Origin: an uncultured Candidatus Saccharibacteria bacterium | Lineage (GTDB): Bacteria; Patescibacteriota; Minisyncoccia; UBA6257; WO2-44-18 | Direction of reading: 5' to 3' | Length of the DNA stretch: 51,505 bases | NCBI GenBank assembly: GCA_964373675.1 | Contig: CAYJVO010000003.1 | Location: forward strand, 1-51,505 | Shown here: positions 11,400-48,749 of the stretch, piece by piece | Numbering within the stretch: position 1 is the first letter of the stretch | Layout: every line of letters begins with the position of its first letter | Notes under the pieces: generated by a model | What the model was told of the DNA's origin: nothing | What the model saw: only the letters and a program-made list of their open reading frames with translations | Database searches by the model: none | Made by a program: the position numbers and the translations under genes

Positions 11400-11429
11400 C
11401 ATGCCACTATCGCATGCGATAGTGGCATG
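11400..11429. promoter_or_regulatory. Perfect 30-bp palindrome immediately upstream of TATAAT (candidate operator or cassette end)
   Basis: CATGCCACTATCGCATGCGATAGTGGCATG; TATAAT at 11431-11436; ATG at 11444. Confidence 0.75.
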
Positions 11430-11443
11430 TTATAATCCCCCGC

Positions 11444-11893
11444 ATGGACATATCGAAAATACTAAACAATAAACATCGAACGGAATGGGAAGAAGCGGTG
11501 TGGACAGAAATTGTTAATCATTTGGCGACGGCGAAATCTCAAAAAGATTTCAAACAAATTTTAGACAAACTATTAAGCGAAGATGAGAAGCGCATAATTG
11601 TAAATCGGGTAGCAGTTTTGGCGCTTGTAAAATCAGGAAAAAGTTATTCAGAAATCGGTAGTGCGCTTTGGGTTTCGCCGGTAACCATCAGTACTGTAAA
11701 GAAAAATTTCTGGGATAAATCCGGGCATTATAAAAGCTGCCGATCAATACCGAACAAAAAGAAAGGGTGGGGCGGCGGGATGGAAACCAAAACTAAAAAA
11801 TCTTTTTGGGACGAACTATTTAACAACATAGATCTGTGGGATTTAATTACAAATCCGCCTCGTCCACCAGGAATTGGTTTAAAAAACAAATAA
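11444..11893 (+). CDS. TrpR-like (YerC/YecD) HTH protein, paralog 1
   Basis: LLSEDEK.II..R.AV..L...GKSYSEIGSALWVSPVTISTV: TrpR-type HTH pattern. Confidence 0.8.
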   Translation: MDISKILNNKHRTEWEEAVWTEIVNHLATAKSQKDFKQILDKLLSEDEKRIIVNRVAVLALVKSGKSYSEIGSALWVSPVTISTVKKNFWDKSGHYKSCRSIPNKKKGWGGGMETKTKKSFWDELFNNIDLWDLITNPPRPPGIGLKNK

Positions 11894-11901
11894 CGGAACA
11901 A

Positions 11902-11929
11902 TCACCACTATCGCATGCGATAGTGGTGA
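11902..11929. repeat. Perfect 28-bp palindrome, second copy of the CCACTATCGCATGCGATAGTGG core
   Basis: TCACCACTATCGCATGCGATAGTGGTGA, 9 nt after the stop of paralog 1. Confidence 0.9.
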
Positions 11930-11947
11930 AGGAAATAAAAAACCGGC

Positions 11948-12283
11948 CTACTTTGGGCCGGGTGGCATTTTCAATTTGATTGGCTCTAGAAGAAATTTCA
12001 AAAGCTTTTTATCGCTATCTAATAGTTTCAAGTCGTTTATTTTTTCCGGATGCCGTTCCAATTCTCCGAGGCATTCTCGACAAGACAAAACATGGCTGAA
12101 AGTCATTCTGAAAACCGGATCGGAAACGACAACTAGCGGCTGTTTGGAACTGCAGGGAAATGGCCAGTTGGTTTCCAAAAACCCAATCTGTTCTTTTAGT
12201 TTTCTAATATCATTCGCAGCGCAAAACACAAAGACTCCAAAAAAAGAGATAACACCAAGAAGCGCGGTCCAATACCAATCCAT
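11948..12283 (-). CDS. Hypothetical membrane-anchored protein
   Basis: N-terminal TM helix, H..SC.EC. Confidence 0.55.
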   Translation of the reverse strand: MDWYWTALLGVISFFGVFVFCAANDIRKLKEQIGFLETNWPFPCSSKQPLVVVSDPVFRMTFSHVLSCRECLGELERHPEKINDLKLLDSDKKLLKFLLEPIKLKMPPGPK

Positions 12284-12309
12284 CCGGCCACCTCACTCAA
12301 AGAACTGGT

Positions 12310-12768
12310 TTAAATATCAAGTACGAGGCGGGTTTTGTAAAGATCGTCTTCTTTTTTTATATCCACTTCGTGATAAGTGACAGCTTTTATGTCTTCTTCG
12401 AATTTATCTACCGACGCTCCGGAAATTTCCGCCTCAATTTCATTATCTTTCAACTTTAAACTTTCCACTTTATAAACTCGCTTATTGATTTGGCTTCTCG
12501 CTAAAATCTCATTCAAAAAATCAACCAGCAAAGTGTTCGTATTCGCTGATTGAATTTTGATTTTTTCTGTCACTGTTTTCACGCGTGAAAGCAGTTTTTG
12601 GCGGCCCCCCAAAATGTCGGCGAGAGCTTCAGCGGCATTGATAAATAATTCCTCGATAGTTTTGCCGTAAACTTCAAAGCGCAAATCGGCAGTATGGCTA
12701 AGGATTTTATATTTCATCCCGTTAGAAGGGGCCCCAACTTCAGTTTTTCTATTATTTTTGTTATTCAT
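12310..12768 (-). CDS. Archease (RtcB cofactor)
   Basis: HTADL...YG.T.EELF.NA, L.DFLNE, IKAVTYH, VLDI C terminus; real start may be ATG 12717. Confidence 0.93.
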   Translation of the reverse strand: MNNKNNRKTEVGAPSNGMKYKILSHTADLRFEVYGKTIEELFINAAEALADILGGRQKLLSRVKTVTEKIKIQSANTNTLLVDFLNEILARSQINKRVYKVESLKLKDNEIEAEISGASVDKFEEDIKAVTYHEVDIKKEDDLYKTRLVLDI

Positions 12769-12822
12769 CGTGCTTTAATAATTCTATTCAGACGGCCGCA
12801 TTTGTTCACCTTCTAACGGGAT
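12716..12822. repeat. 14-bp inverted repeat pair ATCCCGTTAGAAGG / CCTTCTAACGGGAT spanning the murE-archease junction
   Basis: Read directly; the same arm occurs at 34500-34572. Confidence 0.75.
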
Positions 12823-14242: not shown

Positions 14243-14830
14243 TTAGTTCCTTGCTTTCCGCAACGCCTCTTTTAATCTTTCCTTAAATCCAGAAACTTTA
14301 GGGTCAATTTTGGAAATTGTGGCTTTGGCTTGCTGTTTGGTATAACCCAAACTTATTAAGGTTTCTTCTAGCTCTAAATCCGATTCCATCAGTCCCAACG
14401 CTTGCGCGGAAGCCGATCCGCCGCCATCGTCCAATTTGCCCTTTAAATCCACTACCACCCGCTCGGCAGTTTTTTTGCCGATGCCGGAAGCTTTGGTCAA
14501 AAGATCGGTTTTTCCATTGTTGATAGCCGCCGTCAGCTGATCAATCGGCGCTACGCTCAAGATCGCCATTGCTGTTTTCGGGCCAATGCCGCTAACAGTA
14601 TTTAATTTTTCAAAAAGATAAAGCTCCTTCTCGCTCAAAAATCCGAAAAGCTCAAACGGCTCGTTTTCGCGGTTATAAAGAGAGCAAAAAATTTTGATTT
14701 GCGATCCCGGCTGTGGTAAACTCTGGGCGTTCCGCGGAGAAAGAAAAACCTTGAAACCGATTCCACCCGCTTCCAAAATCACGAAATTTTCCTTTCTACC
14801 GACAAGCTTTCCGGATAGAGAATAAATCAC
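14243..14830 (-). CDS. ruvA: Holliday junction branch migration protein RuvA
   Basis: GGIGF, L.GF, VSGIGPKTA, GIGKKTAERVVVDL, LISLGY. Confidence 0.95.
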   Translation of the reverse strand: MIYSLSGKLVGRKENFVILEAGGIGFKVFLSPRNAQSLPQPGSQIKIFCSLYNRENEPFELFGFLSEKELYLFEKLNTVSGIGPKTAMAILSVAPIDQLTAAINNGKTDLLTKASGIGKKTAERVVVDLKGKLDDGGGSASAQALGLMESDLELEETLISLGYTKQQAKATISKIDPKVSGFKERLKEALRKARN

Positions 14831-14853
14831 ACATTAAGTATAAACTATGACTA

Positions 14854-15200
14854 ATGACTATGACTAATGACCAAAAAATAAATAATTACGGCTTTAGATT
14901 CAAAGATTGGGATATTTATAATGATGCCCGTTATTTTAGGATTTTTGTGAACAATATTCTTAAAAAACTTCCTCCTGAAGAAAAATATATCCTTGTAAAT
15001 CAAACTAAACGAGCCTTAATTTCCATAATTCTAAATATTGCTGAGGACGCTAACAGAACTACGGATAAAGAATTGCTTGTATTGATTGCTGTTTAGACAA
15101 CCAATATATTACCGAAAAAGAATATGAGGAGATATTAGTTAAGGCAGAAAGTATAGCTAAAAGACTTCGCAAATTTTCTTCTCATTTATCATCGTCATAG
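14854..15200 (+). pseudogene. Four-helix-bundle protein (23S IVS protein/bAvd-like) with internal deletion and frameshift
   Basis: FKDWDIY...FPxEEKY-like...NQ.KRA..SI.LNIAE in one frame; after 15072 the family-like tail (ACIDCCLDNQYITEKEY...KRLRKF) continues in another frame to TAG at 15200. Confidence 0.75.
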
Positions 15201-15231
15201 TCATAGTCATTTGTTATTAGTCATAGTAAAT

Positions 15232-17007
15232 ATGTTTAAACTGGTATCCCAATTTGTTCCAAAAGGCGATCAGCCGCAGGCCATCGCCAAACTAACGGAC
15301 GGCATCCAAACTGGCTTAAAAGACCAAGTTCTTTTAGGCGTTACCGGCTCCGGCAAGACCTTTACTATGGCCTCGGTAATGGAGAAAATCGGCCTGCCGA
15401 CACTTGTTATCTCACCCAACAAAATCCTCGCCGCCCAGCTTTATCAAGAGTTCAAACAATTTTTTCCGAATAATGCCGTACACTATTTTGTTTCCTACTA
15501 TGACTACTACCAGCCAGAGGCCTACATTCCTCAAACCAACACCTATATCCAAAAAGACGCTCGCATCAACGAAGAAATAGACAAGCTCCGTCATGCCGCC
15601 ATCCAAAGTGTGCTTACCAGAAAAGACACGATCGTTGTCTCTTCCGTCTCCTGCATCTATGGCATCGGCGATCCCAATGAATACCAGCGCGCCCGCCTGG
15701 AACTCAAAACAGGACAATCTGTCGGCCAAAAAGATTTGGAACGCAGTTTAAGTTTTCTCCAATATGAACGCACTACCAAACGCCCGCTTCTCGGCCAATA
15801 CCAGCTTTTAAAAACCGCCCTGGAAATTCACCTTGTAACTGACGAACTTGTCCACATTGAATTTGATCGCGGCCGAAAAATAAAATCCGTTACGAAACTC
15901 GTTAACTCGTTAACTCATCAACTCATTAACTTAATCATCTATCCGGCCAAATTCTGGGTCACACCCCAAAACAAACTCAAACTGGCCCTCAAGAATATTA
16001 AAGCGGAAGCGGAAGAGCGCGTTGAAGAATTACAGTCCGCCAATAAATTTATGGAAGCCGACCGCCTAGAAAAACGCACTGGATTTGATTTGGAAATGCT
16101 CGCTAAAAAAGGTTATATTAATGGAATTGAAAATTATTCCCGTCATTTGAGTTTCCGTGAACCCGGCGAGCCGCCAATGACGCTTTTAGACTACTTCCCA
16201 AAGCCGTTTCTGCTTTTCATTGACGAATCCCATATTGCCATCCCCCAACTTCGCGCTATGGAAGCCGGCGACCGAATTAGAAAAGCCACCCTGATTGAAC
16301 ACGGCTTCCGACTGCCTTCGGCGCTGGACAATCGGCCGCTGAAATTTGAAGAATTCAATTACAAAATCGGCCAGAGAATTTATGTTTCCGCCACCCCCGG
16401 TCCCTATGAGTTGGAAAAGACGGGGCAAATCGTTGAACAACTGGTAAGACCAACTGGTATTTTGGATCCTAAAATTTCTATTCGGCCGGCCCAAAATCAG
16501 ATCAAAGACCTCTTGGAGGAAATCAAAAAACGGATCGCCTGCAATGAACGGGTTCTGGCGCTGACACTAACCAAAAGATCTGCCGAAGATTTGACGGAAT
16601 TTCTGCTTTCCCAAAAAATCCGGGCGCAATATCTTCATTCAGAGATCAAAACCCTAAAGCGCCCTGAAATTCTCAATGCTCTGCGGCGCGGCAAAATTGA
16701 TGTTGTCGTTGGCATCAATCTTTTACGCGAGGGATTGGATCTGCCAGAAGTAAGCTTGGTGGCAATTTTAGACGCCGACCGCGAAGGATTTTTACGCAAC
16801 TACCACGGCCTCATCCAAATGTCTGGCCGCGCCGCCCGCTCAGTTAACGGCAAAGTAATTCTATATGCTGATTTCATCACTGGATCAATAAAAAAAGCGA
16901 CTGTGGAAACTTTGCGGCGGCGCAAAATCCAAGAAAAATTCAACAAAAGCTACGGCATTATCCCGCAGACTATTCAAAAAGAAATTTCTATTGACTCTAT
17001 AAACTAA
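15232..17007 (+). CDS. uvrB: Excinuclease ABC subunit B (short, no C-terminal UVR domain)
   Basis: GDQPQAI, LLGVTGSGKTFT, YFVSYYDYYQPEAY, DESH, DNRPL, NLLREGLDLPEV; ATG 15232 preferred. Confidence 0.96.
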   Translation: MFKLVSQFVPKGDQPQAIAKLTDGIQTGLKDQVLLGVTGSGKTFTMASVMEKIGLPTLVISPNKILAAQLYQEFKQFFPNNAVHYFVSYYDYYQPEAYIPQTNTYIQKDARINEEIDKLRHAAIQSVLTRKDTIVVSSVSCIYGIGDPNEYQRARLELKTGQSVGQKDLERSLSFLQYERTTKRPLLGQYQLLKTALEIHLVTDELVHIEFDRGRKIKSVTKLVNSLTHQLINLIIYPAKFWVTPQNKLKLALKNIKAEAEERVEELQSANKFMEADRLEKRTGFDLEMLAKKGYINGIENYSRHLSFREPGEPPMTLLDYFPKPFLLFIDESHIAIPQLRAMEAGDRIRKATLIEHGFRLPSALDNRPLKFEEFNYKIGQRIYVSATPGPYELEKTGQIVEQLVRPTGILDPKISIRPAQNQIKDLLEEIKKRIACNERVLALTLTKRSAEDLTEFLLSQKIRAQYLHSEIKTLKRPEILNALRRGKIDVVVGINLLREGLDLPEVSLVAILDADREGFLRNYHGLIQMSGRAARSVNGKVILYADFITGSIKKATVETLRRRKIQEKFNKSYGIIPQTIQKEISIDSIN

Positions 17008-18043: not shown

Positions 18044-18988
18044 TTATATCAATAATCTGTTTAGCGGTAACTTCTGGCATTTTGGGCAATAATGCGCTGA
18101 TCTGCCGCCTAATTTAATTCGCTTTATTTGAGTTCCGCATCTTTGACATGAGTCTCCTTCGCGCTGATAAACTAAACGTTCATCAGTATAGGCGCCGGGT
18201 TCGCCAGCTGTATCGCGGAAGTCGCTTGTTGAAGTGCCGCGAAGTTTTACGGCTTTTTTTAAAATCTCTCGCATCGCCTTATAAATCGCTTTTAGTTCCT
18301 GATCCTTTAATTTATTCGCCGACTTGAACGGATGTACTTTCGCTTTCCATAAAATATCGTCCGAATAAATATTACCAATGCCGGCAATCACCTGTTGATC
18401 CATTAATACTTGTTTAATTTTTCTTTTTTCTCCCCTTATTAAACTCATAAACTCAGCGACTGTTAAATTGGGCGAGAGCGCGTCCGACCCAAGATTTACT
18501 AACTCCGGCAAATTCTCAACCTCTTTAGTCCGCCCCAAAATGGCTTTCGCGAATTTCCGCAAATCGGAAAGCGCCAGCATCTTCCCGTTATCCAGATAAA
18601 AAATGAGGTGAATATATTTATTATATGGGTCCTCAACGGCCGCCTTCGGCTCTAGCGGAATAACCTGACACCTGACACCTGACACCTGACACTTGACGCT
18701 CCACTTTCCAACAAGCATATGCCCGGTCATCTTTTGGTGGATTAAAAGAAGCTTATCGCCGGACAGATAAATTAAGATGTTTTTCCCTCGCCGCTCAACA
18801 TTAATAATTTTTGATCCCCGAATTGCCTTTTCAAATTCTTTAACATGCGCGTGCTTCCTTGCCCGCCATTGATCTAACGGATCTTTAATTCCTTTTGGCC
18901 AATCCGACCAAACACCAACGATCCGCCGCCCTACTACTTTGTGGTTTAAATCGTTAACCACAGTTTGAACTTCCGGTAATTCTGGCAT
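18044..18988 (-). CDS. mutM: Formamidopyrimidine-DNA glycosylase
   Basis: MPELPEV, RRGK, H.KMTG, GIGNIYSD, C-terminal CQRC...CPKCQ zinc finger. Confidence 0.97.
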   Translation of the reverse strand: MPELPEVQTVVNDLNHKVVGRRIVGVWSDWPKGIKDPLDQWRARKHAHVKEFEKAIRGSKIINVERRGKNILIYLSGDKLLLIHQKMTGHMLVGKWSVKCQVSGVRCQVIPLEPKAAVEDPYNKYIHLIFYLDNGKMLALSDLRKFAKAILGRTKEVENLPELVNLGSDALSPNLTVAEFMSLIRGEKRKIKQVLMDQQVIAGIGNIYSDDILWKAKVHPFKSANKLKDQELKAIYKAMREILKKAVKLRGTSTSDFRDTAGEPGAYTDERLVYQREGDSCQRCGTQIKRIKLGGRSAHYCPKCQKLPLNRLLI

Positions 18989-18995: not shown

Positions 18996-20333
18996 TTAGT
19001 GTTTTTCTAAATTCCCCCAATTTTCTCCGTAAGAAAAATCCACCTTCAAAAACACGGATAAATTATAAACCCCTTCCATAATTTCTTTAATTCTGGGTGC
19101 AACTTCTGTTAACAAATCCTTTTTGATTTCAAAAAGAAGTTCGTCGTGGATAGACAAAAGAAGCCGCGCTTCTTTTTGCCAGATTTTTCCCTGTTTTAGA
19201 AAATCTGTCACTTGGATCATTGCTAGTTTTATAATATCCGCCGCCAACCCCTGAATCGGCATATTGATCGCCGCCCGCTCAGCTTCCGCCGCCACCCGCC
19301 GATTTTCCGAAACGATGGCCGGCAGCCAACGCTTGCGGCCGTTCAAATTCTCCACATATCCAACCTCCCTTGCCTTATTAATCGTTTTTTCCTGCCAACG
19401 TTTTACTTCTGCAAAATCACTAAAATACTCGGCAATAAAATTCTCCGCCTCTTCACGGCTTAAACCTGTATTGCGAGCAAAAGCATCTGGCCCCATACCG
19501 TAAATAACGCCAAAATTCAAAGTTTTGGCAAAATGCCGTTGTTCTTTGGTAACTCTTTCCACCGGCATGTTAAAAACGTTAGCCGCCGTGATAGCGTGAA
19601 TGTCCAAATCTTTTTTGAATGCCTCAATCATTTTTGGATCCTTCGTCACTGAAGCAAGCACCCGCAATTCAATTTGGGAATAATCAAAAGAAACCAGAAG
19701 ATAGCTCTTTTCGGCGACAAAAACTTCCCGCACGCTTGGCGGCACATTCTGCAAATTGGGGTTTTGCGAGCTCAAACGGCCGGTGGCCGTACCGGTCTGC
19801 AAAAATTCCGTATGAATTCGGTTTCCTTTGTCCGTAGCGGCAAGTTCCTTCAGTGGTTCAATATAAGTTGATTTAATTTTAAAAAGCTCGCGGTATTTTA
19901 AAATTTTCTCTACTGCTGGATGGCGGTCCTTGATTTTCATCAACGCCTCCGCGTCCGTGGAAAATGAACCGGTTTTTCTTTTGGGGATGCCGCGAGTGTC
20001 TATTTTTAATTTCTCAAACAAAACTTCCGAAAGCTGTTTTGGCGAATTTAAATTAAATGGGAAACCAGCCAAGTCGTAAATTTTCTTCTCCAAACCAGCT
20101 AATTCTTTTGCCAAATCTTTGGACATCTTTTTCAAAAGCTTCGGGTCGGCCTTAATGCCGGTCTTCCGCATTTCTTCCAAAATCGGGATTAGCGGCAGTT
20201 CAATCTCGCGATAAATTTTTTCCAGCCCTTCTTCTTTCAATTTCTTCTCCAAAACTTCCGGCGAATCAGCCTTAACCAGGCCCGGCGCATCGGAATTCAA
20301 AAGCCATCGCGCGATTTCTATTTTAGTTATCAT
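18996..20333 (-). CDS. polA: DNA polymerase I, polymerase domain only
   Basis: TGRLSSQNPNLQN, DYSQIELR, AK.LNFG..YG, N.PIQG.AAD, HDEL. Confidence 0.93.
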   Translation of the reverse strand: MITKIEIARWLLNSDAPGLVKADSPEVLEKKLKEEGLEKIYREIELPLIPILEEMRKTGIKADPKLLKKMSKDLAKELAGLEKKIYDLAGFPFNLNSPKQLSEVLFEKLKIDTRGIPKRKTGSFSTDAEALMKIKDRHPAVEKILKYRELFKIKSTYIEPLKELAATDKGNRIHTEFLQTGTATGRLSSQNPNLQNVPPSVREVFVAEKSYLLVSFDYSQIELRVLASVTKDPKMIEAFKKDLDIHAITAANVFNMPVERVTKEQRHFAKTLNFGVIYGMGPDAFARNTGLSREEAENFIAEYFSDFAEVKRWQEKTINKAREVGYVENLNGRKRWLPAIVSENRRVAAEAERAAINMPIQGLAADIIKLAMIQVTDFLKQGKIWQKEARLLLSIHDELLFEIKKDLLTEVAPRIKEIMEGVYNLSVFLKVDFSYGENWGNLEKH

Positions 20334-20352: not shown

Positions 20353-20372
20353 CGTTTTGACGCGTCAAAACG
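20353..20372. repeat. Perfect 20-bp palindrome CGTTTTGACGCGTCAAAACG, downstream of TrpR-like paralog 2
   Basis: Read directly; 6 nt beyond the stop at 20379. Confidence 0.9.
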
Positions 20373-20378
20373 TTCCAG

Positions 20379-20843
20379 TTATGCGCGGCCGTTTTTAAGG
20401 CCCATTCCCGAGGGCCTGGGCGGATTTTTAAAAATTTCCCAAATATCAATATCGCCCAACAATTCTTCAAAAAGCGGCTTCTTACTTACGGTAATTGGTA
20501 AGGCCTTCTCCTTTTTAAGTTTTTTGAAGAAACGCTGGCTTCTGTAAATACCGGGGCTATTAAAAAAATTCTTTTTAAGAGCGCTGATGGTCGCTGGCGA
20601 CATCCACAAAATCCGACTAATTTCTCTGGGTCCTTTACCAGAACGCATCAATGCCACCGCCGCCAATCTTTTGGTTATTATTGATTTCTCGTACTCGCTA
20701 AACAACACATCAATAATCCTGCCTGTTTCTTGTTTGGTTTTAGTTCGGGCCAATTTTTCTAAAAATCTGTTCCACAAAAATTCCCGCCATTCAATCCTGT
20801 GTCGGCTCTGAAAATCTTCAACTTTTTCATTGGTTTTATTCAT
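20379..20843 (-). CDS. TrpR-like (YerC/YecD) HTH protein, paralog 2
   Basis: Aligns by eye with paralog 1 (HR.EW, SE.EK.II, SP.TIS, NPPRP.G.GLKN); ATG 20843 preferred. Confidence 0.8.
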   Translation of the reverse strand: MNKTNEKVEDFQSRHRIEWREFLWNRFLEKLARTKTKQETGRIIDVLFSEYEKSIITKRLAAVALMRSGKGPREISRILWMSPATISALKKNFFNSPGIYRSQRFFKKLKKEKALPITVSKKPLFEELLGDIDIWEIFKNPPRPSGMGLKNGRA

Positions 20844-20862
20844 AGTTATAACATTATACATC

Positions 20863-20886
20863 ACCGTTTTGACGCGTCAAAACGGT
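20863..20886. promoter_or_regulatory. Perfect 24-bp palindrome upstream of TATAAT (candidate operator or cassette end)
   Basis: ACCGTTTTGACGCGTCAAAACGGT; minus-strand TATAAT at 20858-20853. Confidence 0.75.
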
Positions 20887-20913: not shown

Positions 20914-21816
20914 TCATTTATTTAGACGCTCCAACAGACTCTTAAAACCCAATTTTTGGAAATATTCCGCCAATTTTTCTTTATTCAGCTCCCCCGCCGA
21001 AAGCGAAGCGAGATCGCTGACGGCGATTGGGGCGTCGCGGCGGATGAAGGCTAGTTTTTTGGACATTAAAGCGATTTCTTTTTGCCCTTCCAGTTTTTTG
21101 GAAATTTTTTCCGGAATGATGCCAATGCTCGCGAAAACTTCTTCAAGGTTGCCGTATTCTTTTAAAAGCGGCTGGGCGGTTTTAGGCCCCACTCCCTTGA
21201 TGCCCGGGATGTTGTCGGAAACATCCCCCACCATTCCTTTGTAGTCCGCAAGCTGATTCGGTTTGAGTCCATACTTTTCTTCTACTCCTTTTTCGTCATA
21301 AATTACGGTTTCGGAAAGGCCAGTTTTTACAATTTGAGCCAATACTTTTTCATCGCGCACGAGCTGCAGCAAATCATTATCGCCAGAGAGAATCACTACT
21401 TTTAAATCCGAGCCATCTTGTGGTGAGCCTGTCGAACCACCAAATTGCTCCGCAAGCGTCCCGATAATATCGTCGGCTTCAAAACCCGGCACGTCAAAAG
21501 TTTTGACACCAAATGCCTCAAAAACATCTCGGGCCTTAATAATTTGCGGCACTAAATCATCGGCAGTCGGCGGCCGGTGAATTTTGTATTCTTTGAAAAT
21601 TTCATCGCGAAAAGTCGGCTCGGGACGGTCAAACGCGGCGGCGGCATAATCAGGTTTTTGTTCACGAAAAACTTTCAACAAAATTCCGCAAAGTCCGTAA
21701 ATCGCCCCGATCGGCTGGCCATCCGGCGTCGTCAAAGGCGGAAGCGCGTGAAAAAACCGATGAATCAACGCATTGGCGTCAATAAGTAATAAAACGTTCG
21801 TTTTCTTTTCTGCCAT
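20914..21816 (-). CDS. 5'-3' exonuclease (stand-alone PolA N-terminal domain)
   Basis: LIDANALIHR, AFD, EADDIIG, SGDND, GD.SDNIPGIKGVGPKTA. Confidence 0.93.
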   Translation of the reverse strand: MAEKKTNVLLLIDANALIHRFFHALPPLTTPDGQPIGAIYGLCGILLKVFREQKPDYAAAAFDRPEPTFRDEIFKEYKIHRPPTADDLVPQIIKARDVFEAFGVKTFDVPGFEADDIIGTLAEQFGGSTGSPQDGSDLKVVILSGDNDLLQLVRDEKVLAQIVKTGLSETVIYDEKGVEEKYGLKPNQLADYKGMVGDVSDNIPGIKGVGPKTAQPLLKEYGNLEEVFASIGIIPEKISKKLEGQKEIALMSKKLAFIRRDAPIAVSDLASLSAGELNKEKLAEYFQKLGFKSLLERLNK

Positions 21817-25639: not shown

Positions 25640-25667
25640 ACCCAGGGCATTTTTATTCTCCTTCGCC

Positions 25668-40926: not shown

Positions 40927-40943
40927 GTTTTAGAATTTAGATT

Positions 40944-41618
40944 TTAGGATTTAGGATTGTTTTCTAACACACCTTTTTTCTCAATTGTTTCCGGATTGTA
41001 AAGATTGTAGAAGAGTTCCGTCACCGAAGCGGTGTCTAGGGCAATAGCATTTAAACCGATTGCGCCAAGCGCGCTGACGACCTGTTTCACTCGTTGACCG
41101 AGCTGTACTAAACCTTTGGCAATTTGCTGTTCTTTTTCTTGTTGAGTAGCCTGCGGCGAGGTTTTTTTGCCGAAGAGCCCCATAATTTTGGCGGCGATTC
41201 CCGCTGCGATTTGAGGGATTTGGATCGGATCAAAAGGTATAATGACAAAAAAAGTCTTGTTCATAATCGGGTTTTCGGTTATAAAGGAGGAAACGAATTG
41301 GCGATACTCGCCAATTTGATTTTTTAAAAGTTCATTTTGTTCCTCCTGCTGGCGAGTGCTCAATTTTTCCAAATAGCGATCCAGATTAATTTTTCGGGAG
41401 TGAATGAAAAATTGAAGCGAAAAGTCCAGCGCGTTTAAAAGATTTTGGTAACCGTAAAGAATAAGATTTTGCTCTTCTTCGGATTTCAGGTCAAAATTTA
41501 CGCCGGCAACCATTAAGATTTGGCGAAGGGCGCCGTTTTTTAAAATAATCACGCCATCGCGGACTTCTTCAATTTCCACTATTTGCTGAGAAAATTTTGC
41601 TGTTGTTGGTTGAGCCAT
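40944..41618 (-). CDS. VirB4-associated protein (TraE N-terminal-like)
   Basis: DGVIILKNG.LR.IL.V..VNF.LKSEEEQ, F.LQ..I.SR; position between PrgI-like gene and VirB4. Confidence 0.7.
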   Translation of the reverse strand: MAQPTTAKFSQQIVEIEEVRDGVIILKNGALRQILMVAGVNFDLKSEEEQNLILYGYQNLLNALDFSLQFFIHSRKINLDRYLEKLSTRQQEEQNELLKNQIGEYRQFVSSFITENPIMNKTFFVIIPFDPIQIPQIAAGIAAKIMGLFGKKTSPQATQQEKEQQIAKGLVQLGQRVKQVVSALGAIGLNAIALDTASVTELFYNLYNPETIEKKGVLENNPKS

Positions 41619-41655: not shown

Positions 41656-42129
41656 TTAGCGGTAGTCTATTTTTCTTGCGAATCTTTTTTGGCTGAACGC
41701 TTGTTTATACACATCCAGCCTTTCTTTTTGCGCCATCTGAGTTGGGATCCGCAGAGTGGTGGTGATTTTCAGCCAAATTCTTTTAAGCGGAGAAACAATT
41801 TCCAGACGAGGGGCTTCCGGTATTTTAATTTCCGGAACAGCAGCGATTTCTTCAGATTTTTTCCATAAATAAAGTTTTGGTTGAGTCGCGTATTTTAAAG
41901 CCGAAGCGATTATCACCGGCATTGGTCGGCCATTATACTTTAAAAATGCCAAAATTGCCGCTGTCGTCCCGAGGATTGCAGTGACGATGAACCAAAACCA
42001 GAGTTTCAGGACAAAAAACAGCAAGAAACTGATCAGTCCGGCCGCCGCCAAATAAATAAATTGTTTGAGCGTCAGCGGCCCGACGATTTTATCCTCCATT
42101 TCTATAAATTGTGGAACTTGAAATTGCAT
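41656..42129 (-). CDS. PrgI family protein
   Basis: QFQVPQFIE.EDKIVGPLTLKQF, two TM helices, YNGRP. Confidence 0.85.
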   Translation of the reverse strand: MQFQVPQFIEMEDKIVGPLTLKQFIYLAAAGLISFLLFFVLKLWFWFIVTAILGTTAAILAFLKYNGRPMPVIIASALKYATQPKLYLWKKSEEIAAVPEIKIPEAPRLEIVSPLKRIWLKITTTLRIPTQMAQKERLDVYKQAFSQKRFARKIDYR

Positions 42130-42133
42130 ATCA

Positions 42134-42639
42134 GTTGATGAGTTAAAGAGTTGATGAGTTGATGAGGTTGACTTTGTTTTCCGGAAAATTTTCTATGAAT
42201 TTTATGTAGCCAAAAATTGCTTTTCTAAGGTTAATATACTGGCCCGAAACTTTTTTTGCTGTTTCTTGGTCAATAAACCCTTTATCGGAACATCGTAGGA
42301 TATTGGTTCTTGTTTCTTCTAATTCCGCTATCGCAATATCCCTTAATATATGTATTTTATCGCGTTTATGCTGTTTATAATAAGCCTCAGCAATATTATT
42401 AGTTATTGAAGAAGACGATCTATTTAATTGATCAACGCTTCTAAACCGCTCGTCTTTGGGAAAAGCTTTAGTGAGCTCGCGAACTTCCAGTTCTAGATCT
42501 TTAGCCATATTGTAAATTTTTAAGTTTTCTATTCCTGTAGCCATTGAAATTATTCCTCATTAACTGTAGCGAAGCCAAGTCTGACTTAGCGAAGCCAAGT
42601 CTGACTTGGCGAAGCGTAACTCATTAACTCTTCAACTCA
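42134..42639. mobile_element. Putative cassette: 8-mer array - four-helix-bundle gene - CTCATTAACTGTAGCG end
   Basis: Both ends recur without the gene at 49053-49137 and 49581-49665. Confidence 0.55.
42143..42544 (-). CDS. Four-helix-bundle protein (23S IVS protein/bAvd-like)
   Basis: ENLKIY, FPKDERF...DQL.RSS.SI..NIAE, IA..EL.E. Confidence 0.88.
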   Translation of the reverse strand: MATGIENLKIYNMAKDLELEVRELTKAFPKDERFRSVDQLNRSSSSITNNIAEAYYKQHKRDKIHILRDIAIAELEETRTNILRCSDKGFIDQETAKKVSGQYINLRKAIFGYIKFIENFPENKVNLINSSTL

Positions 42640-43226
42640 GTCTTCATATTGCTATAATGAACCTTTTTTGGTTCATCATCGTGGGTCGGAATAGGGCCGA
42701 TACTCGGAACCTTAAAAGCTTGGGGCGCTTGTCCCGCCAACGGCGAGAGTTTTGGCGGGGACGGAGCCTCTGTTTGTTCCGGTATAGTTAAAATAAATCC
42801 TGGTTTGGAAATAAAGAATTTATATAAAGAATAGCGATTGGATTTTAGCCAATTAATTTTTTCTTCAGCTGTTCCCCCGGGTATAGCTTTTGAGAATTGT
42901 TTTTGTAGAAATTCTAATTCTGTTGCAGGTAGTGATTCATAAACAGCTTTCATAGCTTCTTCGTTAAGAGAATCAATTACCGCTTTCATAATCACCGGCT
43001 TAGCTGATTTTTCCCATTCCTCCGAGGTTAAATTACCTCTAAAAGCTGGAGCGCCTTCTATGATGAGTATCCATTCAATATCTTCCCAATCTTCAGGTTT
43101 AAAATTAGTTAATATCCGTTGAAGATTGCTTTGGGTCAAAGAATAGTCTTTTTTTTGTAAAGCTTCCCAAACCGTTGGTTCCCAGATCGGTATTGAATTT
43201 ATAATTATTTTTTCTACTGCTGGCAT
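42624..43226 (-). CDS. Hypothetical protein
   Basis: 200-aa ORF with Pro-rich linker; last codons and stop lie inside the repeat end. Confidence 0.65.
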   Translation of the reverse strand: MPAVEKIIINSIPIWEPTVWEALQKKDYSLTQSNLQRILTNFKPEDWEDIEWILIIEGAPAFRGNLTSEEWEKSAKPVIMKAVIDSLNEEAMKAVYESLPATELEFLQKQFSKAIPGGTAEEKINWLKSNRYSLYKFFISKPGFILTIPEQTEAPSPPKLSPLAGQAPQAFKVPSIGPIPTHDDEPKKVHYSNMKTELKS

Positions 43227-43290: not shown

Positions 43291-44820
43291 CTAATTCTTT
43301 CGTCTTTTTTTCTTCGGCATCGTTTCATGGCGTCCGAAGCCGAGCTTTAGTCCCTCTAAGAGTTCGTTAGCAACAGCGGGTTCCATTTTAATTAAGTCAA
43401 GTCTCTTATTTCTTGCTAATTCAGATAGAATAAGCATTTTCATTGGTTTTGGAGCAAATTTGTATCTTCTAGCTATTTCTTCCAAAGATAATCCTTTGAT
43501 TGATTGTTCGTAAGGTTTCAATATCTGTTTTTCAGCCGTCATGCGAATATTAGCTAGTCCAGCGCCAGCTGTTCTCAAAAGCGGCACTTTCTGCATACCC
43601 GCAACTATGTTGCGACCGATTTGAGTTCTTAGTGGCCAAGAGCCGGCCCGCAAACCGATTCTTCCAGTTTGACCAATGGCGAAGTTTTTCACGGCTCCGG
43701 TTTGACCAATGGCGAAGTTTTTCACGGCTCCGGCCCATCTTAACCCCATATCTGCTCCGCTGATGCTCATAGAATTGGCAGCCATTAGTCCGCCGACCAT
43801 TAAACCAGCCGAAATAATAATTTGAAGAAAAAGTCCTAGGGCATCTTGAATTAAAAGCCCATCATTAACAAAACGCGCAATTTGACTTGAGGCCGTATGC
43901 TGGTTAATCGATTCGCCAATTTTATCAACGGTCACTAAAGCAAGATAGATGAAGAAGGTTGCGGCTGGCAAAAAGAAATTCCACTGTAAGAATTTTGACC
44001 ACCAATTCCTCCAAAGGTGGCTAAGATTTGGGAAAATCCACATCAGCCAAGCCAGTGGCATTAAAAGAAGAAGAATGGTGAGCATGATATAGCGGATCAA
44101 AAGCATAAATCCCGTGACGAACATTACTATAGCCGTAATGGCTCCAAAAATAATCATGAAAATGGGGGCTAAAACTAATGAAATTAATTTAAAAACTACT
44201 CCCTCAACATCAGAAATATCATTCCTGACCGATAACAATTTTTGGGGATTAAAAGCGGCCATAATATTGTTGGTGAAAAGCGCTGGATCACCACCGGCTC
44301 CTTGATTGACAAAGACGGCTGCCAGCGCATTATTGAAATCTACAATTGGTGCGGCAATCACTAAACTAAAATTTACTAATAAAGCCGCAACAATGAGTTT
44401 CCACAGAGTTTTTTTAATGGCATAACTTTCAATTCTTAAAATAGTTGCAAAGGCAATAATGATAATTGCTAACACGAAACCGAGATTGGTAATGTCTAAG
44501 ACGACACCAAACCCGTTTTTTAAAAGATGATTGGTATCCAGATTAAAGACTTGGGCGTTGAAAGCGAGCATGAAATTAATAAGATCCGTCCCTACGCTAA
44601 TTAAGTACTGAATGGCGATTGCCGGAATGAATGTAACATACCGCAGTAATAAGGATATGCCTTCCTCTACGCAGGCATACAAGTCACCAGGACCGCAATT
44701 TACGAAAGCCGGCTGCGTTAATAACTCGCTGACATTTTGAGCAGAAGCGAAGTTCGCCGCAAAAAGAAAAACGGCAATCAGTGAAATTAATAAAATTTTA
44801 TTTACGGAATGTTTCTGCAT
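43291..44820 (-). CDS. VirB6/TrbL-like polytopic membrane protein
   Basis: D..NL.F....IIIAF.TIL, L..LI.AALLVNFS, R.I.L..L..L.PLA......P, W..WW..F..W.FF.P; possible frameshift near the 3' end. Confidence 0.7.
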   Translation of the reverse strand: MQKHSVNKILLISLIAVFLFAANFASAQNVSELLTQPAFVNCGPGDLYACVEEGISLLLRYVTFIPAIAIQYLISVGTDLINFMLAFNAQVFNLDTNHLLKNGFGVVLDITNLGFVLAIIIIAFATILRIESYAIKKTLWKLIVAALLVNFSLVIAAPIVDFNNALAAVFVNQGAGGDPALFTNNIMAAFNPQKLLSVRNDISDVEGVVFKLISLVLAPIFMIIFGAITAIVMFVTGFMLLIRYIMLTILLLLMPLAWLMWIFPNLSHLWRNWWSKFLQWNFFLPAATFFIYLALVTVDKIGESINQHTASSQIARFVNDGLLIQDALGLFLQIIISAGLMVGGLMAANSMSISGADMGLRWAGAVKNFAIGQTGAVKNFAIGQTGRIGLRAGSWPLRTQIGRNIVAGMQKVPLLRTAGAGLANIRMTAEKQILKPYEQSIKGLSLEEIARRYKFAPKPMKMLILSELARNKRLDLIKMEPAVANELLEGLKLGFGRHETMPKKKRRKN

Positions 44821-46196: not shown

Positions 46197-46197
46197 T

Positions 46198-46944
46198 TTA
46201 GTTGTTCAGGGCTTGAAATTTTTGTTTTAAGACAGCCAATTCTTTATTTAAATCATCGTTCGCTCTAAGCGCCAGCACTGTTTGAAACGGATCCTGTTGA
46301 TAATTGAGAATAATTTCAAAAACCGTTTTTTGAGCAGTTAAAAGCGCAATTTCTTCTTTATGAAGTTCTTTTAAAGAAGACGGAACGGCAAGTTTTTTTA
46401 ATTCAGTAACAGTTTTTTCATAAGCGGTTAATAAACTTTTTAAGTTTTCCGCAACAAATCCCTCATCTTTTTTAAACCGCGGCACATTACTAGAAAGAAC
46501 ATTTTGGAAAAATGCAAGGTAGGCGTTGACAGAATTTTTATCATTTTGGGGAGAAATTATGATTTCCGAATCACGAACTATTGGTTTAAAAGATTGGTAG
46601 TCAAAATTTGCCAATGTTTCGTCAATTAGTTGGTCCAGTACTGCTTCCGGATCAGCGACCGATAACCAGGGTTTTTCTCCTATTAATTCTGGCCCGTTGG
46701 CATTACGGGACAAAATTTCTTGGCTTAATTTGGACGCGATTTTTTCGGTGGAATTGATAACTTTGACGTTTCGGTCGGAGCCCTGACCCAAAGGCGTCGG
46801 GGTTGTGGCTGATTCTAAATTTTGAATTTTAAAAGCCGCTGGCTCACCGAGTATTTCTTTGTTGGAATTTTTTTGAAAAACAATCAAGCCGGCAAAAATT
46901 AATGATCCAACAATCAGCGTTATTGATAAAATTTTTGAAACCAT
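46198..46944 (-). CDS. Hypothetical membrane-anchored protein
   Basis: N-terminal TM helix; VP.SL.ELH helical C terminus. Confidence 0.65.
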   Translation of the reverse strand: MVSKILSITLIVGSLIFAGLIVFQKNSNKEILGEPAAFKIQNLESATTPTPLGQGSDRNVKVINSTEKIASKLSQEILSRNANGPELIGEKPWLSVADPEAVLDQLIDETLANFDYQSFKPIVRDSEIIISPQNDKNSVNAYLAFFQNVLSSNVPRFKKDEGFVAENLKSLLTAYEKTVTELKKLAVPSSLKELHKEEIALLTAQKTVFEIILNYQQDPFQTVLALRANDDLNKELAVLKQKFQALNN

Positions 46945-46998
46945 TTTCGTTAATTCTTTATATTTTTACCCTTTATTCCTTATTTCCCATTCTTTAAC

Positions 46999-47406
46999 TT
47001 AGGGTGTGCACCAGCAAATACCGGCAAACCAAAGCGCTCCTTGAGGTGGGGGACACAGTAAATTTAGGCAGCCGGGAATGATTCCGGTTGGTGTTGGAAT
47101 ATCAAACGGTGGTCCGGGAATCGGCGTTGCCGTAGGCGCAAAACTCGGGACCGGAATACCGCCTTGGCGAAAGACTAAGGGATTGTGAGTCGTTTTTTGA
47201 CGCAGCACTGCTTCATATCCTCTGTAGGTAGTGAGATGTTTTAAAAGCCGGCGGGCTTCGCTTGTAGAAAATTGCTCTTTTACAGCTTCACGAAGATAGC
47301 GAAGCGGATTAGAATTTTTAGGCAATGAAAATGATTGAGCGCTTAATGCGGGTCTATAAAATATGCTTGTAGCAACCAAAATTGCTGTTAGAAATAGCAG
47401 TCGCAT
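46999..47406 (-). CDS. Hypothetical exported protein with Cys-rich C terminus
   Basis: Signal peptide; PGCLNLLCPPPQGALWFAGICWC. Confidence 0.55.
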   Translation of the reverse strand: MRLLFLTAILVATSIFYRPALSAQSFSLPKNSNPLRYLREAVKEQFSTSEARRLLKHLTTYRGYEAVLRQKTTHNPLVFRQGGIPVPSFAPTATPIPGPPFDIPTPTGIIPGCLNLLCPPPQGALWFAGICWCTP

Positions 47407-47428
47407 ACATTATTATTATAGGTTAATG

Positions 47429-48292
47429 CTATAAGCTGAAAAAGTGAGAAAGAGTGGATAACTTTTCTAAACTTAAATCCTGCGGTCTTGTATTGACCGG
47501 AAGACCATTTTTGGCAAGAATTTCAGCAATTTTTGACTTATCCACAGATAATCCCCCCTTCGCTAAAGCTACGGAGGGCAGGCCACTAGTCAAATTATTA
47601 AGAAGGGTCTTTCTCGGCTGTTTAAAAATAATTTTTATCAACTTATAGTAGTTTTTCTCCGCTTCCCTAGTGGTTAATGGCTGAACCCTAGTGGCTAGTT
47701 TTATAATTGCCGATTCCACTTTCGGCGGCGGTGAGAAATTAGACGGCTTTAAATAAGATATTATTTTTGGCTCGGCCCAAAACTGCACCGCCGCCGCCAG
47801 CAAATTCATCCCACACATAGGACATTTCCTACGTGTGGGATTCATTTTCGGCGGATGAGCGCAAATTCGTTCCGCGACCTCCCTTTGAATAGTCAGCACA
47901 GTCAGCGCCGGCTTATTTTCCAATTCGCTCAAAATCCGCAAAAGCTTGCCGGTGATGTAATAGGGAATGTTGCCCACTACTTTGAAGAATCCGGAATATA
48001 GAATATAGAATTCAGGGTTGGCTAGTACTTTTAGCGCATCGCCGTGAATAATTTTGGCGTTTCCTAAATTTTGTATCCTAAATTCTAAATCCTCGGCTAA
48101 ACGAGGGTCTTTCTCTATACCAATGACTTTGCAACCGATTTTCGCGCATTGTTCCGCAAGCGGTATTGTTAATGCTCCCTTTCCTGGACCGATTTCCACA
48201 ATCGTCTCGCCGGCGTTTAATTCCAAAGCGGCGATTATTTTTTGAATCGCTGAACGTTTAATCAAAAAATGCTGTCCTAATTTGCGTGACAT
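47429..48292 (-). CDS. rsmA: 16S rRNA adenine dimethyltransferase RsmA/KsgA
   Basis: LGQHFL, VEIGPGKG.LT, IEKD, GDAL, VGNIPYYIT, Q.EVAERI, F.PPPKVESA, F.QPRKTL.NNL. Confidence 0.96.
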   Translation of the reverse strand: MSRKLGQHFLIKRSAIQKIIAALELNAGETIVEIGPGKGALTIPLAEQCAKIGCKVIGIEKDPRLAEDLEFRIQNLGNAKIIHGDALKVLANPEFYILYSGFFKVVGNIPYYITGKLLRILSELENKPALTVLTIQREVAERICAHPPKMNPTRRKCPMCGMNLLAAAVQFWAEPKIISYLKPSNFSPPPKVESAIIKLATRVQPLTTREAEKNYYKLIKIIFKQPRKTLLNNLTSGLPSVALAKGGLSVDKSKIAEILAKNGLPVNTRPQDLSLEKLSTLSHFFSL

Positions 48293-48335
48293 AATGCTAA
48301 CTGCTCTAACTTTTACACGAATTACACGAAGTTAG

Positions 48336-48749
48336 TTATTTTTTAAATTTAGCATTTATTATGCGTTTTGGTTTCAGATATTTTTGTTTGAAGTTCACAA
48401 TCATTCCCAAAGATAGGTTAGAAAATTCTAAATAACGCAGAACTTGATAGAAGTCGTTTCTTGTGGTGAATGGTTTGTTTTTTAACTCGATCACAATGAT
48501 TCCCTCGATTACGAAATCCGCCCTGTTAATATCATCACCAGTCTTTGAAATTAGTTTTTCTCTTTCGTACTTGATCCCCGTCTTCATAAGCAGTTTTTCT
48601 AATAGATCGCCGTACTGTTTTTTTCTCGCATATCTTCCGAGGGAGTCTTGGGTTTTAAAAAACAAGCCGACGAGTCTGTAAGACAAATCTTTATGTAGAA
48701 TATTTATTGTTTGTGTTATTCGTGTATTAGTTCGTGTTGTTGGTTTTAT
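48336..48749 (-). CDS. GxxExxY family protein, possibly degenerate
   Basis: ILHKDLSY.L.G..F....LGRYARKKQY, RADF.IE..I..ELK, Q.L.YL, G..VNF; frame open to ATA 48749 with no ATG; motif Glu appears as Lys. Confidence 0.7.
   Translation of the reverse strand: MKPTTRTNTRITQTINILHKDLSYRLVGLFFKTQDSLGRYARKKQYGDLLEKLLMKTGIKYEREKLISKTGDDINRADFVIEGIIVIELKNKPFTTRNDFYQVLRYLEFSNLSLGMIVNFKQKYLKPKRIINAKFKK

Follow-up and report, generated by a model that had tools for sequence, protein, structure and literature searches.

The stretch of contig CAYJVO010000003.1 analyzed here (51,505 nt, called the window below) is densely packed, with median spacers of a few tens of nucleotides. Among otherwise recognizable housekeeping genes, it carries five small genes of three families, and each of the five is enclosed by inverted repeats. 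We consider it fairly probable that these are single-gene units with inverted repeats of their own, built to two designs: four-helix-bundle (4HB) and GxxExxY genes in units of the type of the 23S rRNA intervening sequences (IVSs), and TrpR-like genes in units that would be self-repressed. An earlier note on this DNA had described five genes of three unrelated families with copy-specific bracketing repeats; profile searches and a ranking of all genes by bracketing bore this out, with the amendments that the first 4HB gene and the GxxExxY gene are decaying and that the TrpR flanks are repeats of a different kind. The five units are as follows.

11400-11929, plus strand: TrpR-like cassette TrpR#1; open reading frame (ORF) 11444-11893, 149 amino acids; TATAAT at 11431-11436; perfect palindromes at 11400-11429 (left, 30 nt) and 11902-11929 (right, 28 nt), with the identical 22-nt core CCACTATCGCATGCGATAGTGG at 11404-11425 and 11905-11926
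14829-15235, plus strand: 4HB cassette 4HB#1, decayed; fills the divergent RuvA/UvrB junction; arms at 14829-14874 and 15189-15235, ATGACTA/TAGTCAT units
20353-20886, minus strand: TrpR-like cassette TrpR#2, between two PolA ORFs; ORF 20379-20843, ATG start, 154 amino acids; TATAAT at 20853-20858; palindromes at 20863-20886 (upstream) and 20353-20372 (downstream), repeat CGTTTTGACGCGTCAAAACG at 20353-20372 and 20865-20884
42125-42646, minus strand: 4HB cassette 4HB#2, intact, in an operon resembling a type IV secretion system (T4SS), between gene 42624-43226 and the PrgI-like gene 41656-42129; ORF 42143-42544; arms at 42125-42177 and 42613-42646, AGTTGATG/AACTCATT units; inner 21-nt tandem repeat at about 42567-42612
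48291-48749, minus strand: GxxExxY (PD-(D/E)XK) cassette at the PcrA/KsgA junction; ORF 48336-48686; arms at 48291-48330 and 48710-48749, ACACGAA/TTCGTGT units

The NCBIfam search identified 42143-42544 as a full-length match to TIGR02436 (83.6 bits, cut-off 24), and the 4HB#2 protein also matches PDB 2gsc, the Xanthomonas S23p. The ORF 14854-15096 of 4HB#1 scores 36.1 bits against the same model (cut-off 24) over its N-terminal half only. This gene is frameshifted: the ORF covers helices 1-2, and the C-terminal helix lies in another frame, to about 15198. The GxxExxY ORF matches TIGR04256 (56 bits, cut-off 35) and keeps D74 and E84-x-K86 of the D...ExK nuclease core typical of this family (PF13366, PDDEXK_3). 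It has lost its ATG, extending in frame to 48737 without one, and has K in place of the conserved E of the ExxY motif. Two of the three 4HB and GxxExxY copies in the window are therefore degenerate. The TrpR-type matches of both TrpR-like genes stay below the curated cut-offs of the two models concerned (24 bits versus 67 for one model, and 21 versus 42 for the other).

To quantify the bracketing, each gene's upstream flank was compared with its downstream flank in reverse complement. Among 56 genes, the five in cassettes came out on top, at ranks 1-5 (z = 13.4, 13.6, 7.8, 4.4, and 4.5), with at most one in 200 shuffles reaching each score. In minimum-energy folds, every whole cassette is closed by 20-36 long-range pairs. 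Tandem arrays of 6-9-nt units number 14 in the window, compared with 0-1 in Markov simulations (∼0.35 expected, a ∼40-fold excess); six of the 14 lie within 30 nt of a gene boundary, where 2.1 are expected (P = 0.013). Perfect zero-loop palindromes of at least 20 nt number seven, with a chance expectation estimated at ∼0.05. The units are of two kinds, 4HB and GxxExxY cassettes armed with tandem arrays and TrpR-like genes bracketed by palindromes, and the treatment of the three families as one uniform class in the earlier note has to be given up, as the TrpR units differ in having perfect palindromes over their own promoter.

One alternative is that these are ordinary small genes, vertically inherited, and that the repeats are terminators, operators or attenuators of their neighbors, with no cassette units at all. 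Intergenic hairpins are indeed common in the window. Still, the top five ranks belong to the five genes in question, no T-runs come after the arms, which base-pair with one another over the length of the ORF, and two of the copies are pseudogenes.

To compare the window with its relatives, we used related loci, numbered L001 and onwards. A UvrB-based scan of species-representative genomes yielded L001-L013; the nearest relatives are metagenome-assembled genomes of Candidatus Harrisonbacteria/Parcubacteria, with UvrB identity of 71-79%. The relatives keep the order MBL-fold (metallo-beta-lactamase) RNase, Mur ligase, RuvA, UvrB, S20, HolA, MutM, PolA (polymerase part), PolA (5' nuclease), TsaE, RuvB, PilB. 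A KsgA-based scan of metagenomes yielded L082, which is syntenic with the window across 37-51 kb (66% KsgA identity). For near-identical strains, an exact-protein look-up of RuvA returned a single 2-kb contig. The five proteins were also used as phmmer and jackhmmer queries against the fetched loci; for 4HB genes these searches lacked sensitivity, and they overlooked the copy in L006. Its ORF was first read by eye and then confirmed by NCBIfam, as were the copies in L098, L099, and L105.

The 4HB and GxxExxY units are ∼410-520 bp long and consist of an ORF between inverted arrays of 7-8-nt tandem repeats, with predicted arm stems of 23-36 terminal pairs. The arms abut or overlap the start and stop codons of the ORF. 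In particular, the C-terminus of the 4HB#2 protein, ...LINSSTL*, is encoded by the arm itself, and the N-terminus MRTDTNT of GxxExxY homologues is encoded by ACGAAC units. The units fit precisely into gene junctions: the GxxExxY cassette occupies the interval from the stop codon of pcrA to the start codon of ksgA, and an arm of 4HB#2 supplies the last four codons and the stop codon of the T4SS-operon gene 42624-43226.

Cassettes of the same design occur elsewhere in the Candidate Phyla Radiation (CPR). Those with 4HB genes were found in L094, L096, L098 (two), L099, and L105, the one in L094 sharing both the junction and the arm units with 4HB#2; those with GxxExxY genes were found in L102-104, also at the PcrA/KsgA junction, and in L100 and L105-108. 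The arm units go with the clade of the cargo: ACACGAAC is found beside GxxExxY genes, (T)AGTTxxx beside genes of the 4HB#2 clade, and CTCTAAA beside those of a second 4HB clade. For arm k-mers in the non-coding flanks, the Jaccard similarity is 0.072 within cargo clades and 0.009 between them (permutation P = 0.0002), in a comparison that covers Harrison-, Wolfe-, Jorgensen-, Sung-, Brenner-, and Falkowbacteria. As neutral flanks should be randomized at the protein identities observed (55-70%), the arm sequence itself, beyond its complementarity, seems to be constrained or co-inherited with the cargo. The arm unit being inherited with the cargo clade, the unit of descent would be the cargo together with its arms. 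This does not agree with vertically inherited genes beside unrelated regulatory hairpins, as each cargo clade keeps its arm units at different junctions and in different phylum-level lineages.

The link between arms and cargo could also have a homing-like cause, in which the cargo product (the GxxExxY nuclease or the 4HB pentamer) recognizes its own 7-8-bp arm repeats in the manner of iterons, cuts or remodels them, and repair copies the cassette. Such a process would account for arm units conserved with the cargo despite amino acid identity of only 61-71%, for the preserved D...ExK core and for the reuse of junctions by different cargo (see below), and solo arrays could then be targets. On the other hand, neither family has a known activity, 4HB proteins carry no catalytic motif, the arms of the GxxExxY cassette and 4HB#1 in the window persist even though both genes are degenerate, and S23p of Coxiella is apparently not expressed (PMC4990558). 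We regard homing as quite unlikely.

The closest known counterpart of the 4HB and GxxExxY units is the IVS of 23S rRNA, which carries an S23p (23S_rRNA_IVP) ORF in Leptospira, Coxiella, Xanthomonas, and Brucella. The Coxiella IVS of 428-444 nt contains an S23p four-helix-bundle ORF that is under reductive evolution, has tandem heptamers at the start codon, and is closed by a 28-bp terminal stem that is cut by RNase III (PMC4990558). In CPR bacteria, 23S_rRNA_IVP ORFs have already been reported in rRNA insertions (PMC11270868). The window cassettes share with these IVSs the length of ∼400-500 nt, the terminal inverted repeats closing a stem of at least 20-30 bp around the ORF, the heptamers at the start codon, the sporadic distribution, the decay of the ORF, and the existence of short ORF-less versions; the PF05635/TIGR02436 four-helix-bundle ORF is shared by the 4HB cassettes only. 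Unlike the IVSs, the window cassettes reside at junctions of protein-coding genes or in frame rather than in helix 25 or 45 of 23S rRNA, have a second cargo (the GxxExxY nuclease) and cargo-clade-specific arms, and favor folding of the antisense strand. By "IVS-type" we mean anatomy and homology only, and RNase III excision would be an extension by analogy. In the literature searched, no paper ties GxxExxY or non-rRNA 4HB genes to flanking arms of tandem units, and neither cargo-specific arms nor palindrome-bracketed TrpR-like units are described. How the 23S rRNA IVSs arose and spread has been an open question since the 1990s, and the hypotheses have been reviewed (PMC4990558). Here the design of an IVS is seen away from rRNA, in combination with another cargo family, arms particular to each cargo, orthologous sites that are empty in some genomes and filled in others, and stems biased to one strand; this offers a comparative handle on the movement of IVSs, and also on the roles of 4HB and GxxExxY proteins, two very common families with no known function.

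The TrpR-like units are organized differently. Their flanks in the window are perfect zero-loop palindromes of 20-30 nt, one on each side of the gene. The layout is palindrome, 5 nt, TATAAT or TACAAT, 7-9 nt, ATG, with a second identical copy of the palindrome after the stop codon, and it is present in all six independent homologues that could be read (both window copies, L002, L088, L089-91, and L092-93). Judging by this layout, the mRNA is essentially leaderless, with the putative promoter within or beside the upstream palindrome. The palindromes vary between homologues, one sub-clade keeping the outer CCACTA...TAGTGG with a variable center. The outer half-site is common to the proteins that have the helix SPVTIS(T/I)(V/I)KKNF, and proteins with SPATISAL or SPQTISAI have other half-sites, a match that would fit direct recognition of the palindrome. 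The ACTA/TAGT cores of the half-sites are reminiscent of the trp operator.

The AlphaFold2 model of the protein has a TrpR fold over residues 1-91 (pLDDT ∼70-80), followed by a disordered tail that carries the conserved C-terminal motif W-D/E-L..NPPRPxGxGLK, with no catalytic domain. Foldseek aligned the model with the TrpR structures 1tro, 3kor, and 3frw at TM 0.6-0.69, with E-values of only ∼0.04. Pfam PF01371 is recorded for the homologues, and the family is small, with 212 representatives among 1.84 billion clusters. Like TrpR and the YerC-YecD repressors, the TrpR-like proteins would combine a predicted six-helix TrpR-like fold with palindromic sites; they differ from them in profile scores below the cut-offs, in the extra C-terminal motif, and in the 18-32-bp perfect palindromes duplicated around the gene.

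As a test for a regulon, we searched the 51 kb for further copies of either palindrome, allowing up to four mismatches, and found none. The most economical reading is that the protein represses its own gene at the upstream palindrome, the downstream copy probably serving as a second site for a loop or a roadblock. That both copies are perfect and identical suggests an additional process at the DNA level, such as gene conversion or recombination between the copies. Recombination between palindromes could also explain the opposite orientation of the TrpR-like gene in L002 (see below). In insertion sequences (ISs) of the IS1 InsA type, a terminal inverted repeat extends into the promoter of the transposase gene and serves as the binding site of a helix-turn-helix (HTH) repressor. 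The TrpR units resemble them in having identical end repeats, the left one over the promoter, in a small HTH product that likely binds both ends, and in transfer as a block; unlike them, they have no DDE or other catalytic domain, and each end is by itself a perfect palindrome. They may therefore be a compact case of a regulator travelling with its own putative operators.

Comparison of orthologous junctions shows what is present where.

RuvA/UvrB: the 4HB#1 cassette in the window, where the junction measures 400 nt; most relatives with 13-60 nt; in L006, a complete 4HB gene that belongs to another clade and has CTCTAAA-type arms; arm-like heptamer remnants in L004, L007, and L011, two of them of the window's ATGAC(A/T)A type
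PolA (polymerase part)/PolA (5' nuclease): TrpR#2 in the window; 0-26 nt in L001, L003, and L006; in L002, a TrpR-like cassette that points the other way and has a palindrome of its own, accompanied by another ORF; some other insert in L013
PcrA/KsgA: the GxxExxY cassette in the window; empty in L082 (66% KsgA identity), with pcrA and ksgA overlapping; occupied by a GxxExxY gene in L102-104, which are more distant (49% KsgA identity)
gene 42624-43226/PrgI-like gene: 4HB#2 in the window; empty in L082; a 4HB gene with matching arm units in L094
TraC-like/VirB4-like: a solo heptamer array in the window; a 4HB gene in L099; a GxxExxY gene in L105

For TrpR#1, the copy at the same locus of L088 allows dating relative to the flanks. 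The cassettes are 90.6% identical at the nucleotide level and 80% at third codon positions, compared with 66-68% and 44-47%, respectively, for the flanking archease and Mur ligase genes. The high identity extends from the left palindrome to ∼20 nt beyond the right palindrome and then collapses. This means that the TrpR#1 cassette is much younger than the genes around it. The GxxExxY gene is 68% identical to its L102 homologue, compared with 49-55% for the flanking KsgA.

Two of the checks proposed in the earlier note, presence/absence across relatives and phylogenetic incongruence, thus both gave results in favor of units: orthologous junctions (RuvA/UvrB, PolA/PolA, PcrA/KsgA) are empty or differently filled, and the TrpR#1 cassette is out of step with its flanks, the latter on the evidence of a short metagenome contig. 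These patterns support the cassettes being discrete units that have been gained, lost, and transferred in the course of evolution, as far as sequence comparison can tell. The interpretation of the note, an undescribed mobile class, is partly supported: units of gain and loss they appear to be, and the word "undescribed" does not apply to the 4HB type, which is a relocated variant of the S23p IVS rather than a new class. Inheritance of ordinary small genes in place, with hairpins belonging to the neighbors, is at variance with the empty junctions of 0-26 nt in the closer relatives and with the young age of TrpR#1, and is already largely refuted; its remaining strength is that 4HB#2, GxxExxY, and TrpR#1 occupy the same junctions in L094, L102, and L088, and that no empty alleles were seen in the population. 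We consider it very improbable.

Several observations weigh against our interpretation. L088 is a 3.9-kb metagenome contig, and a chimeric join keeps some small probability, although the same contig was seen in four samples. For the pairs 4HB#2/L094 and GxxExxY/L102, third codon positions are saturated, so that ages are not comparable, and both genes keep their junctions in distant relatives, which old vertical inheritance followed by several losses would explain as well. Contigs of the window population (97% likeness) that span the three left-hand cassettes revealed no empty allele or other alternative form; community contigs at 85% likeness form many joints, which come from related taxa and are not readable as empty alleles. 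The relatives were sampled around cassette-bearing loci, and this introduces ascertainment bias into the apparent hot spots. Movement is deduced from comparison of sequences. Finally, the structure of the arms favors the wrong strand for processing of the transcript: mismatches on the sense strand are A.C in 43 cases and G.U in 19 (p = 0.003), and of 14 cassettes, 12 have arms whose duplex is more stable when formed by the antisense strand (mean 7.9 kcal/mol, p = 0.011). A stem for RNase III in the sense transcript, if selected, predicts the opposite bias, and hence the data lend no support to selection of a sense-RNA stem; RNase III processing of the sense transcript, the behavior by which IVSs are defined (excision with no religation), would be hypothetical here and may not be the selected function.

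The antisense bias can be read in three ways. The fold that matters may form in DNA, on the bottom strand, either as single-stranded DNA or as a cruciform, in the manner of single-strand recombination systems; the folded molecule may instead be an antisense RNA; or a strand-specific mutation bias may mimic the pattern. The first of these bears on another explanation, that the repeats are hairpins of the type of REPINs (repetitive extragenic palindromic, REP, sequences paired into mobile hairpins) or miniature inverted-repeat transposable elements (MITEs), mobilized in trans by a transposase of HUH/Y1, RAYT, IS200/IS605 or other type, and that the ORFs are passengers. The mismatch asymmetry pointing to one folded strand, as in single-strand transposition, would be expected in this case, as would the many ORF-less hairpins and arrays of the same unit families, the absence of a transposase from the window, and the community contigs that join the same arms at other loci. 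The cassettes resemble REP/REPIN and MITE elements in being short multi-copy intergenic hairpins with no transposase in the unit and with one strand apparently folded. They differ in that the arms are 7-8-nt tandem arrays rather than one palindrome, and that many have a family-specific ORF in the loop. Arms specific to the cargo clade across distant lineages are not expected of random passengers, and the arms overlap the ORF's own start and stop codons. Moreover, Pfam detected no transposase or integrase, and in particular no RAYT, in a scan of 20 window ORFs that took in all those of 100 or more amino acids with no other assignment, in agreement with the earlier note; none was noticed in the related loci, which had no systematic scan. 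As regards formal IS or MITE status within the window, inverted repeats are present, a transposase is absent, and no clear target-site duplication is seen: TrpR#2 has none, and a possible TATG at 4HB#1 falls inside the arm unit. Trans-mobilized hairpins with passenger ORFs therefore seem unlikely to us.

In attC sites, folding is likewise favored on the strand opposite to the ORF. The units could thus be integron-like cassettes with folded bottom-strand sites and a tyrosine recombinase elsewhere, or, for the 4HB genes, Avd subunits linked to diversity-generating retroelements (DGRs); 4HB#2 has a weak match to the Avd profile, and L001 carries a reverse transcriptase and a 4HB fragment in a neighboring gap. 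Unlike integron cassettes, the units are scattered singly with no array next to an integrase, the repeats bracket the ORF instead of forming a single 3' site, and the TrpR units have a promoter. The window contains no integrase, no reverse transcriptase, and no pair of template and variable repeats, and the Avd score of 25.4 bits is far below the cut-off of 80. We consider both versions extremely improbable.

In a search for phage vectors among IMG/VR contigs, no relatives of the TrpR-like or GxxExxY genes were found, and PADLOC returned no match in a test for defense systems. A look-up among RNA-seq runs returned none that contains the locus.

Repeats with no gene of their own occur throughout the window, both between and within genes.

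49036-49138, minus strand: pcrA hairpin 1, ORF-less and in frame, peptide ...ATVNEF..QLINSST
49572-49678, minus strand: pcrA hairpin 2, ORF-less and in frame, 89% identical to hairpin 1 over 38 nt
40929-40958, unstranded: solo array of TTTAGGA/TTTAGAA heptamers, TraC-like/VirB4-like junction
26754-26821, unstranded: gene-less hairpin with TTTAGGG/CCCTAAA arms, YebC/RuvC junction; the unit type is that of the arms of the L006/L105 4HB clade
7074-7116, unstranded: small hairpin and TTTAGGG array, junction 7050-7113
6045-6141, unstranded: gene-less hairpin of AATAATGC-type units, junction between the start of the MgtC-like gene and 6147-6416
8509-8538, unstranded: orphan 30-nt perfect palindrome TCCAATACTCTCATTAATGAGAGTATTGGA, intergenic, in the style of the TrpR flanks, with no gene
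15896-15931, unstranded: single-arm array AACTCGTT/AACTCATT of the 4HB#2 unit family, variable loop of uvrB
18663-18697, unstranded: ACCTGAC heptamer array, lineage-variable loop of mutM
8387-8416 (MBL-fold RNase gene), 10005-10034 (rtcB), and 21991-22038 (tsaE): CTTGAYA-type arrays

The gene-less sites of the earlier note, those near 6045, 7074, 8509, and 26754 and those in pcrA, each turned out to be a hairpin or a unit array. Both pcrA hairpins are very stable and, like the cassette arms, more stable on the antisense strand. They use the AGTTGATG/AACTCATT units of the 4HB#2 arms, down to CTCATTAACTGTAGCG. The PcrA protein of L102 has gaps of 15 and 24 residues exactly at the two hairpin sites, and that of L082 has inserts at both sites from a different, GC-rich hairpin family. 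The heptamer arrays in mutM, tsaE, the MBL-fold RNase gene, and rtcB are in lineage-variable loops, the tsaE array being an 11-amino-acid insert. The link between cassette arms and repeats in core genes is real at the sequence level. Its direction may be the one proposed in the earlier note, in which cassettes seed these in-frame repeats, or the reverse: the solo repeats could be either remnants of cassettes or their targets.

Returning to single-gene units with their own repeats as the preferred explanation, and starting from the anatomy, the statistics, the presence/absence pattern, the arm-cargo link, and the age of TrpR#1, we infer binding, autoregulation, a step at the stems, and a mode of insertion as follows. 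Small accessory or selfish genes would travel as single-gene units in a Harrisonbacteria-like CPR genome with very short spacers. The 4HB and GxxExxY units would be the same kind of element as the S23p-carrying 23S rRNA IVSs, placed in protein-coding operons. RNase III or another structure-specific step may act at their stems, and insertion may proceed through recombination at hairpins or arrays and require no transposase encoded by the cassette. ORF-less hairpins and arrays would be derivatives of cassettes or landing pads for them; in-frame hairpins would survive inside core genes such as pcrA, and cassette copies would decay. In the TrpR-like units, a dimer most likely binds both the palindrome over its own -35/-10 region, with self-repression as the result, and the identical copy 0-10 nt after the stop codon; the block from palindrome to palindrome would move or recombine between lineages.

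Such units would explain part of the variation between otherwise syntenic CPR genomes, and would also account for the odd repeat-encoded peptides in PcrA, TsaE, and MutM, as well as for contigs that break off at an arm or a palindrome. A broader generalization, which we hold only tentatively and think rather doubtful, is that the 23S rRNA IVSs are the rRNA-resident tip of a wider class of transposase-less one-gene cassettes, with repeats recognized by the product, structure formed on the opposite strand, and hairpins left behind in core proteins. In this case, cassettes with 4HB, GxxExxY nuclease or TrpR-like HTH cargo would spread between genomes and operon junctions, in CPR and perhaps elsewhere, via single-stranded DNA or cruciforms.

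A number of further observations concern the cassettes and their surroundings. Contigs often end exactly at TrpR palindromes or at AGTTGATG arms (L088, L089-L091, Logan contigs), which indicates that these repeats break short-read assemblies. Other junction gaps hold small genes of selfish type (L001, 6931-8296; L011, 17554-18371; L013, 18720-19108), among them the reverse transcriptase with the 4HB fragment in L001, toxin-antitoxin-like pairs recognized by eye, and a GIY-YIG-like nuclease. In addition, an unannotated ORF family (MAQKKSRFVSAFDV...) recurs in different gaps of L001, L002, L003, and L011.

DNA polymerase I is encoded by two ORFs, for the 5' nuclease and the polymerase domain (18996-20333 and 20914-21816), with no 3'-5' exonuclease domain. 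We rejected the idea that the TrpR#2 cassette had split PolA, as the two adjacent ORFs already exist in all relatives having both parts. TrpR#1 lies in a variable island at 8500-12800 with the order methyltransferase, RtcB, small ORF, TrpR#1, small ORF, archease. The island, which carries the RNA-repair pair, is missing in L001 and L003, where the MBL-fold RNase gene adjoins the Mur ligase gene. Splicing of the hairpins by RtcB and archease was set aside, with nothing pointing to it; RNase III ends are not RtcB substrates.

The heptamer arrays within mutM, tsaE, and the T4SS pilin gene (18663-18697, 21991-22038, and 38057-38087) have units whose length is not divisible by three. If replication slipped by one unit, the reading frame would change, and hence these three genes might be phase-variable. 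Two further perfect zero-loop palindromes lie within genes, one of 34 nt at 3049-3082 in a gene for an O-antigen-ligase-like membrane protein and one of 22 nt at 31177-31198 in dnaN; both are in the style of the TrpR flanks, with no TrpR-like gene nearby. In the T4SS-like operon, the TrbL-like gene contains an exact 33-nt tandem duplication at 43663-43728, encoding the peptide GAVKNFAIGQT twice.

Another gene-less family of inverted repeats, absent from the earlier note, involves a 67-nt promoter-like element. Its two copies, 79% alike, precede yebC (26132-26198) and a penicillin-binding protein gene (27697-27765), and each is paired with an inverted arm of 22-25 nt located 96-225 nt upstream (25929-25950 and 27620-27644); the arm at the penicillin-binding protein gene is complementary at 25 of 25 positions. 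A GC-rich, hairpin-dense non-coding stretch at 25640-25930 follows the lipoprotein ORF 25241-25639. It has no Rfam match and resembles in style the GC-rich hairpin peptides (VIASASEAIS) in PcrA of L082. Searches against Rfam, of the whole window at the gathering threshold and of 25.0-27.9 kb by E-value, returned only a tRNA-Arg and sub-threshold noise, and hence no rRNA or known RNA accounts for the repeats.

The window as a whole comprises a run of repair and replication genes and the T4SS-like operon with pilin, PrgI-like, and VirB4-like genes. It also spans dnaA-dnaN-rnpA-yidC, with a turn in GC skew at about 26-33 kb. The pcrA gene (48746-51505), which runs past the end of the window, contains a 361-amino-acid intein after VGDDAQ (Intein_splicing and Hint domains) that has no counterpart in L082 or L102. 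Near the other end, a 42-nt copy of the 3' half of tRNA-Arg(CCG), 90% identical, lies ∼50 nt from the intact tRNA gene (1614-1655 and 1706-1778, respectively), and may be an old attachment-site scar of an integrated element.

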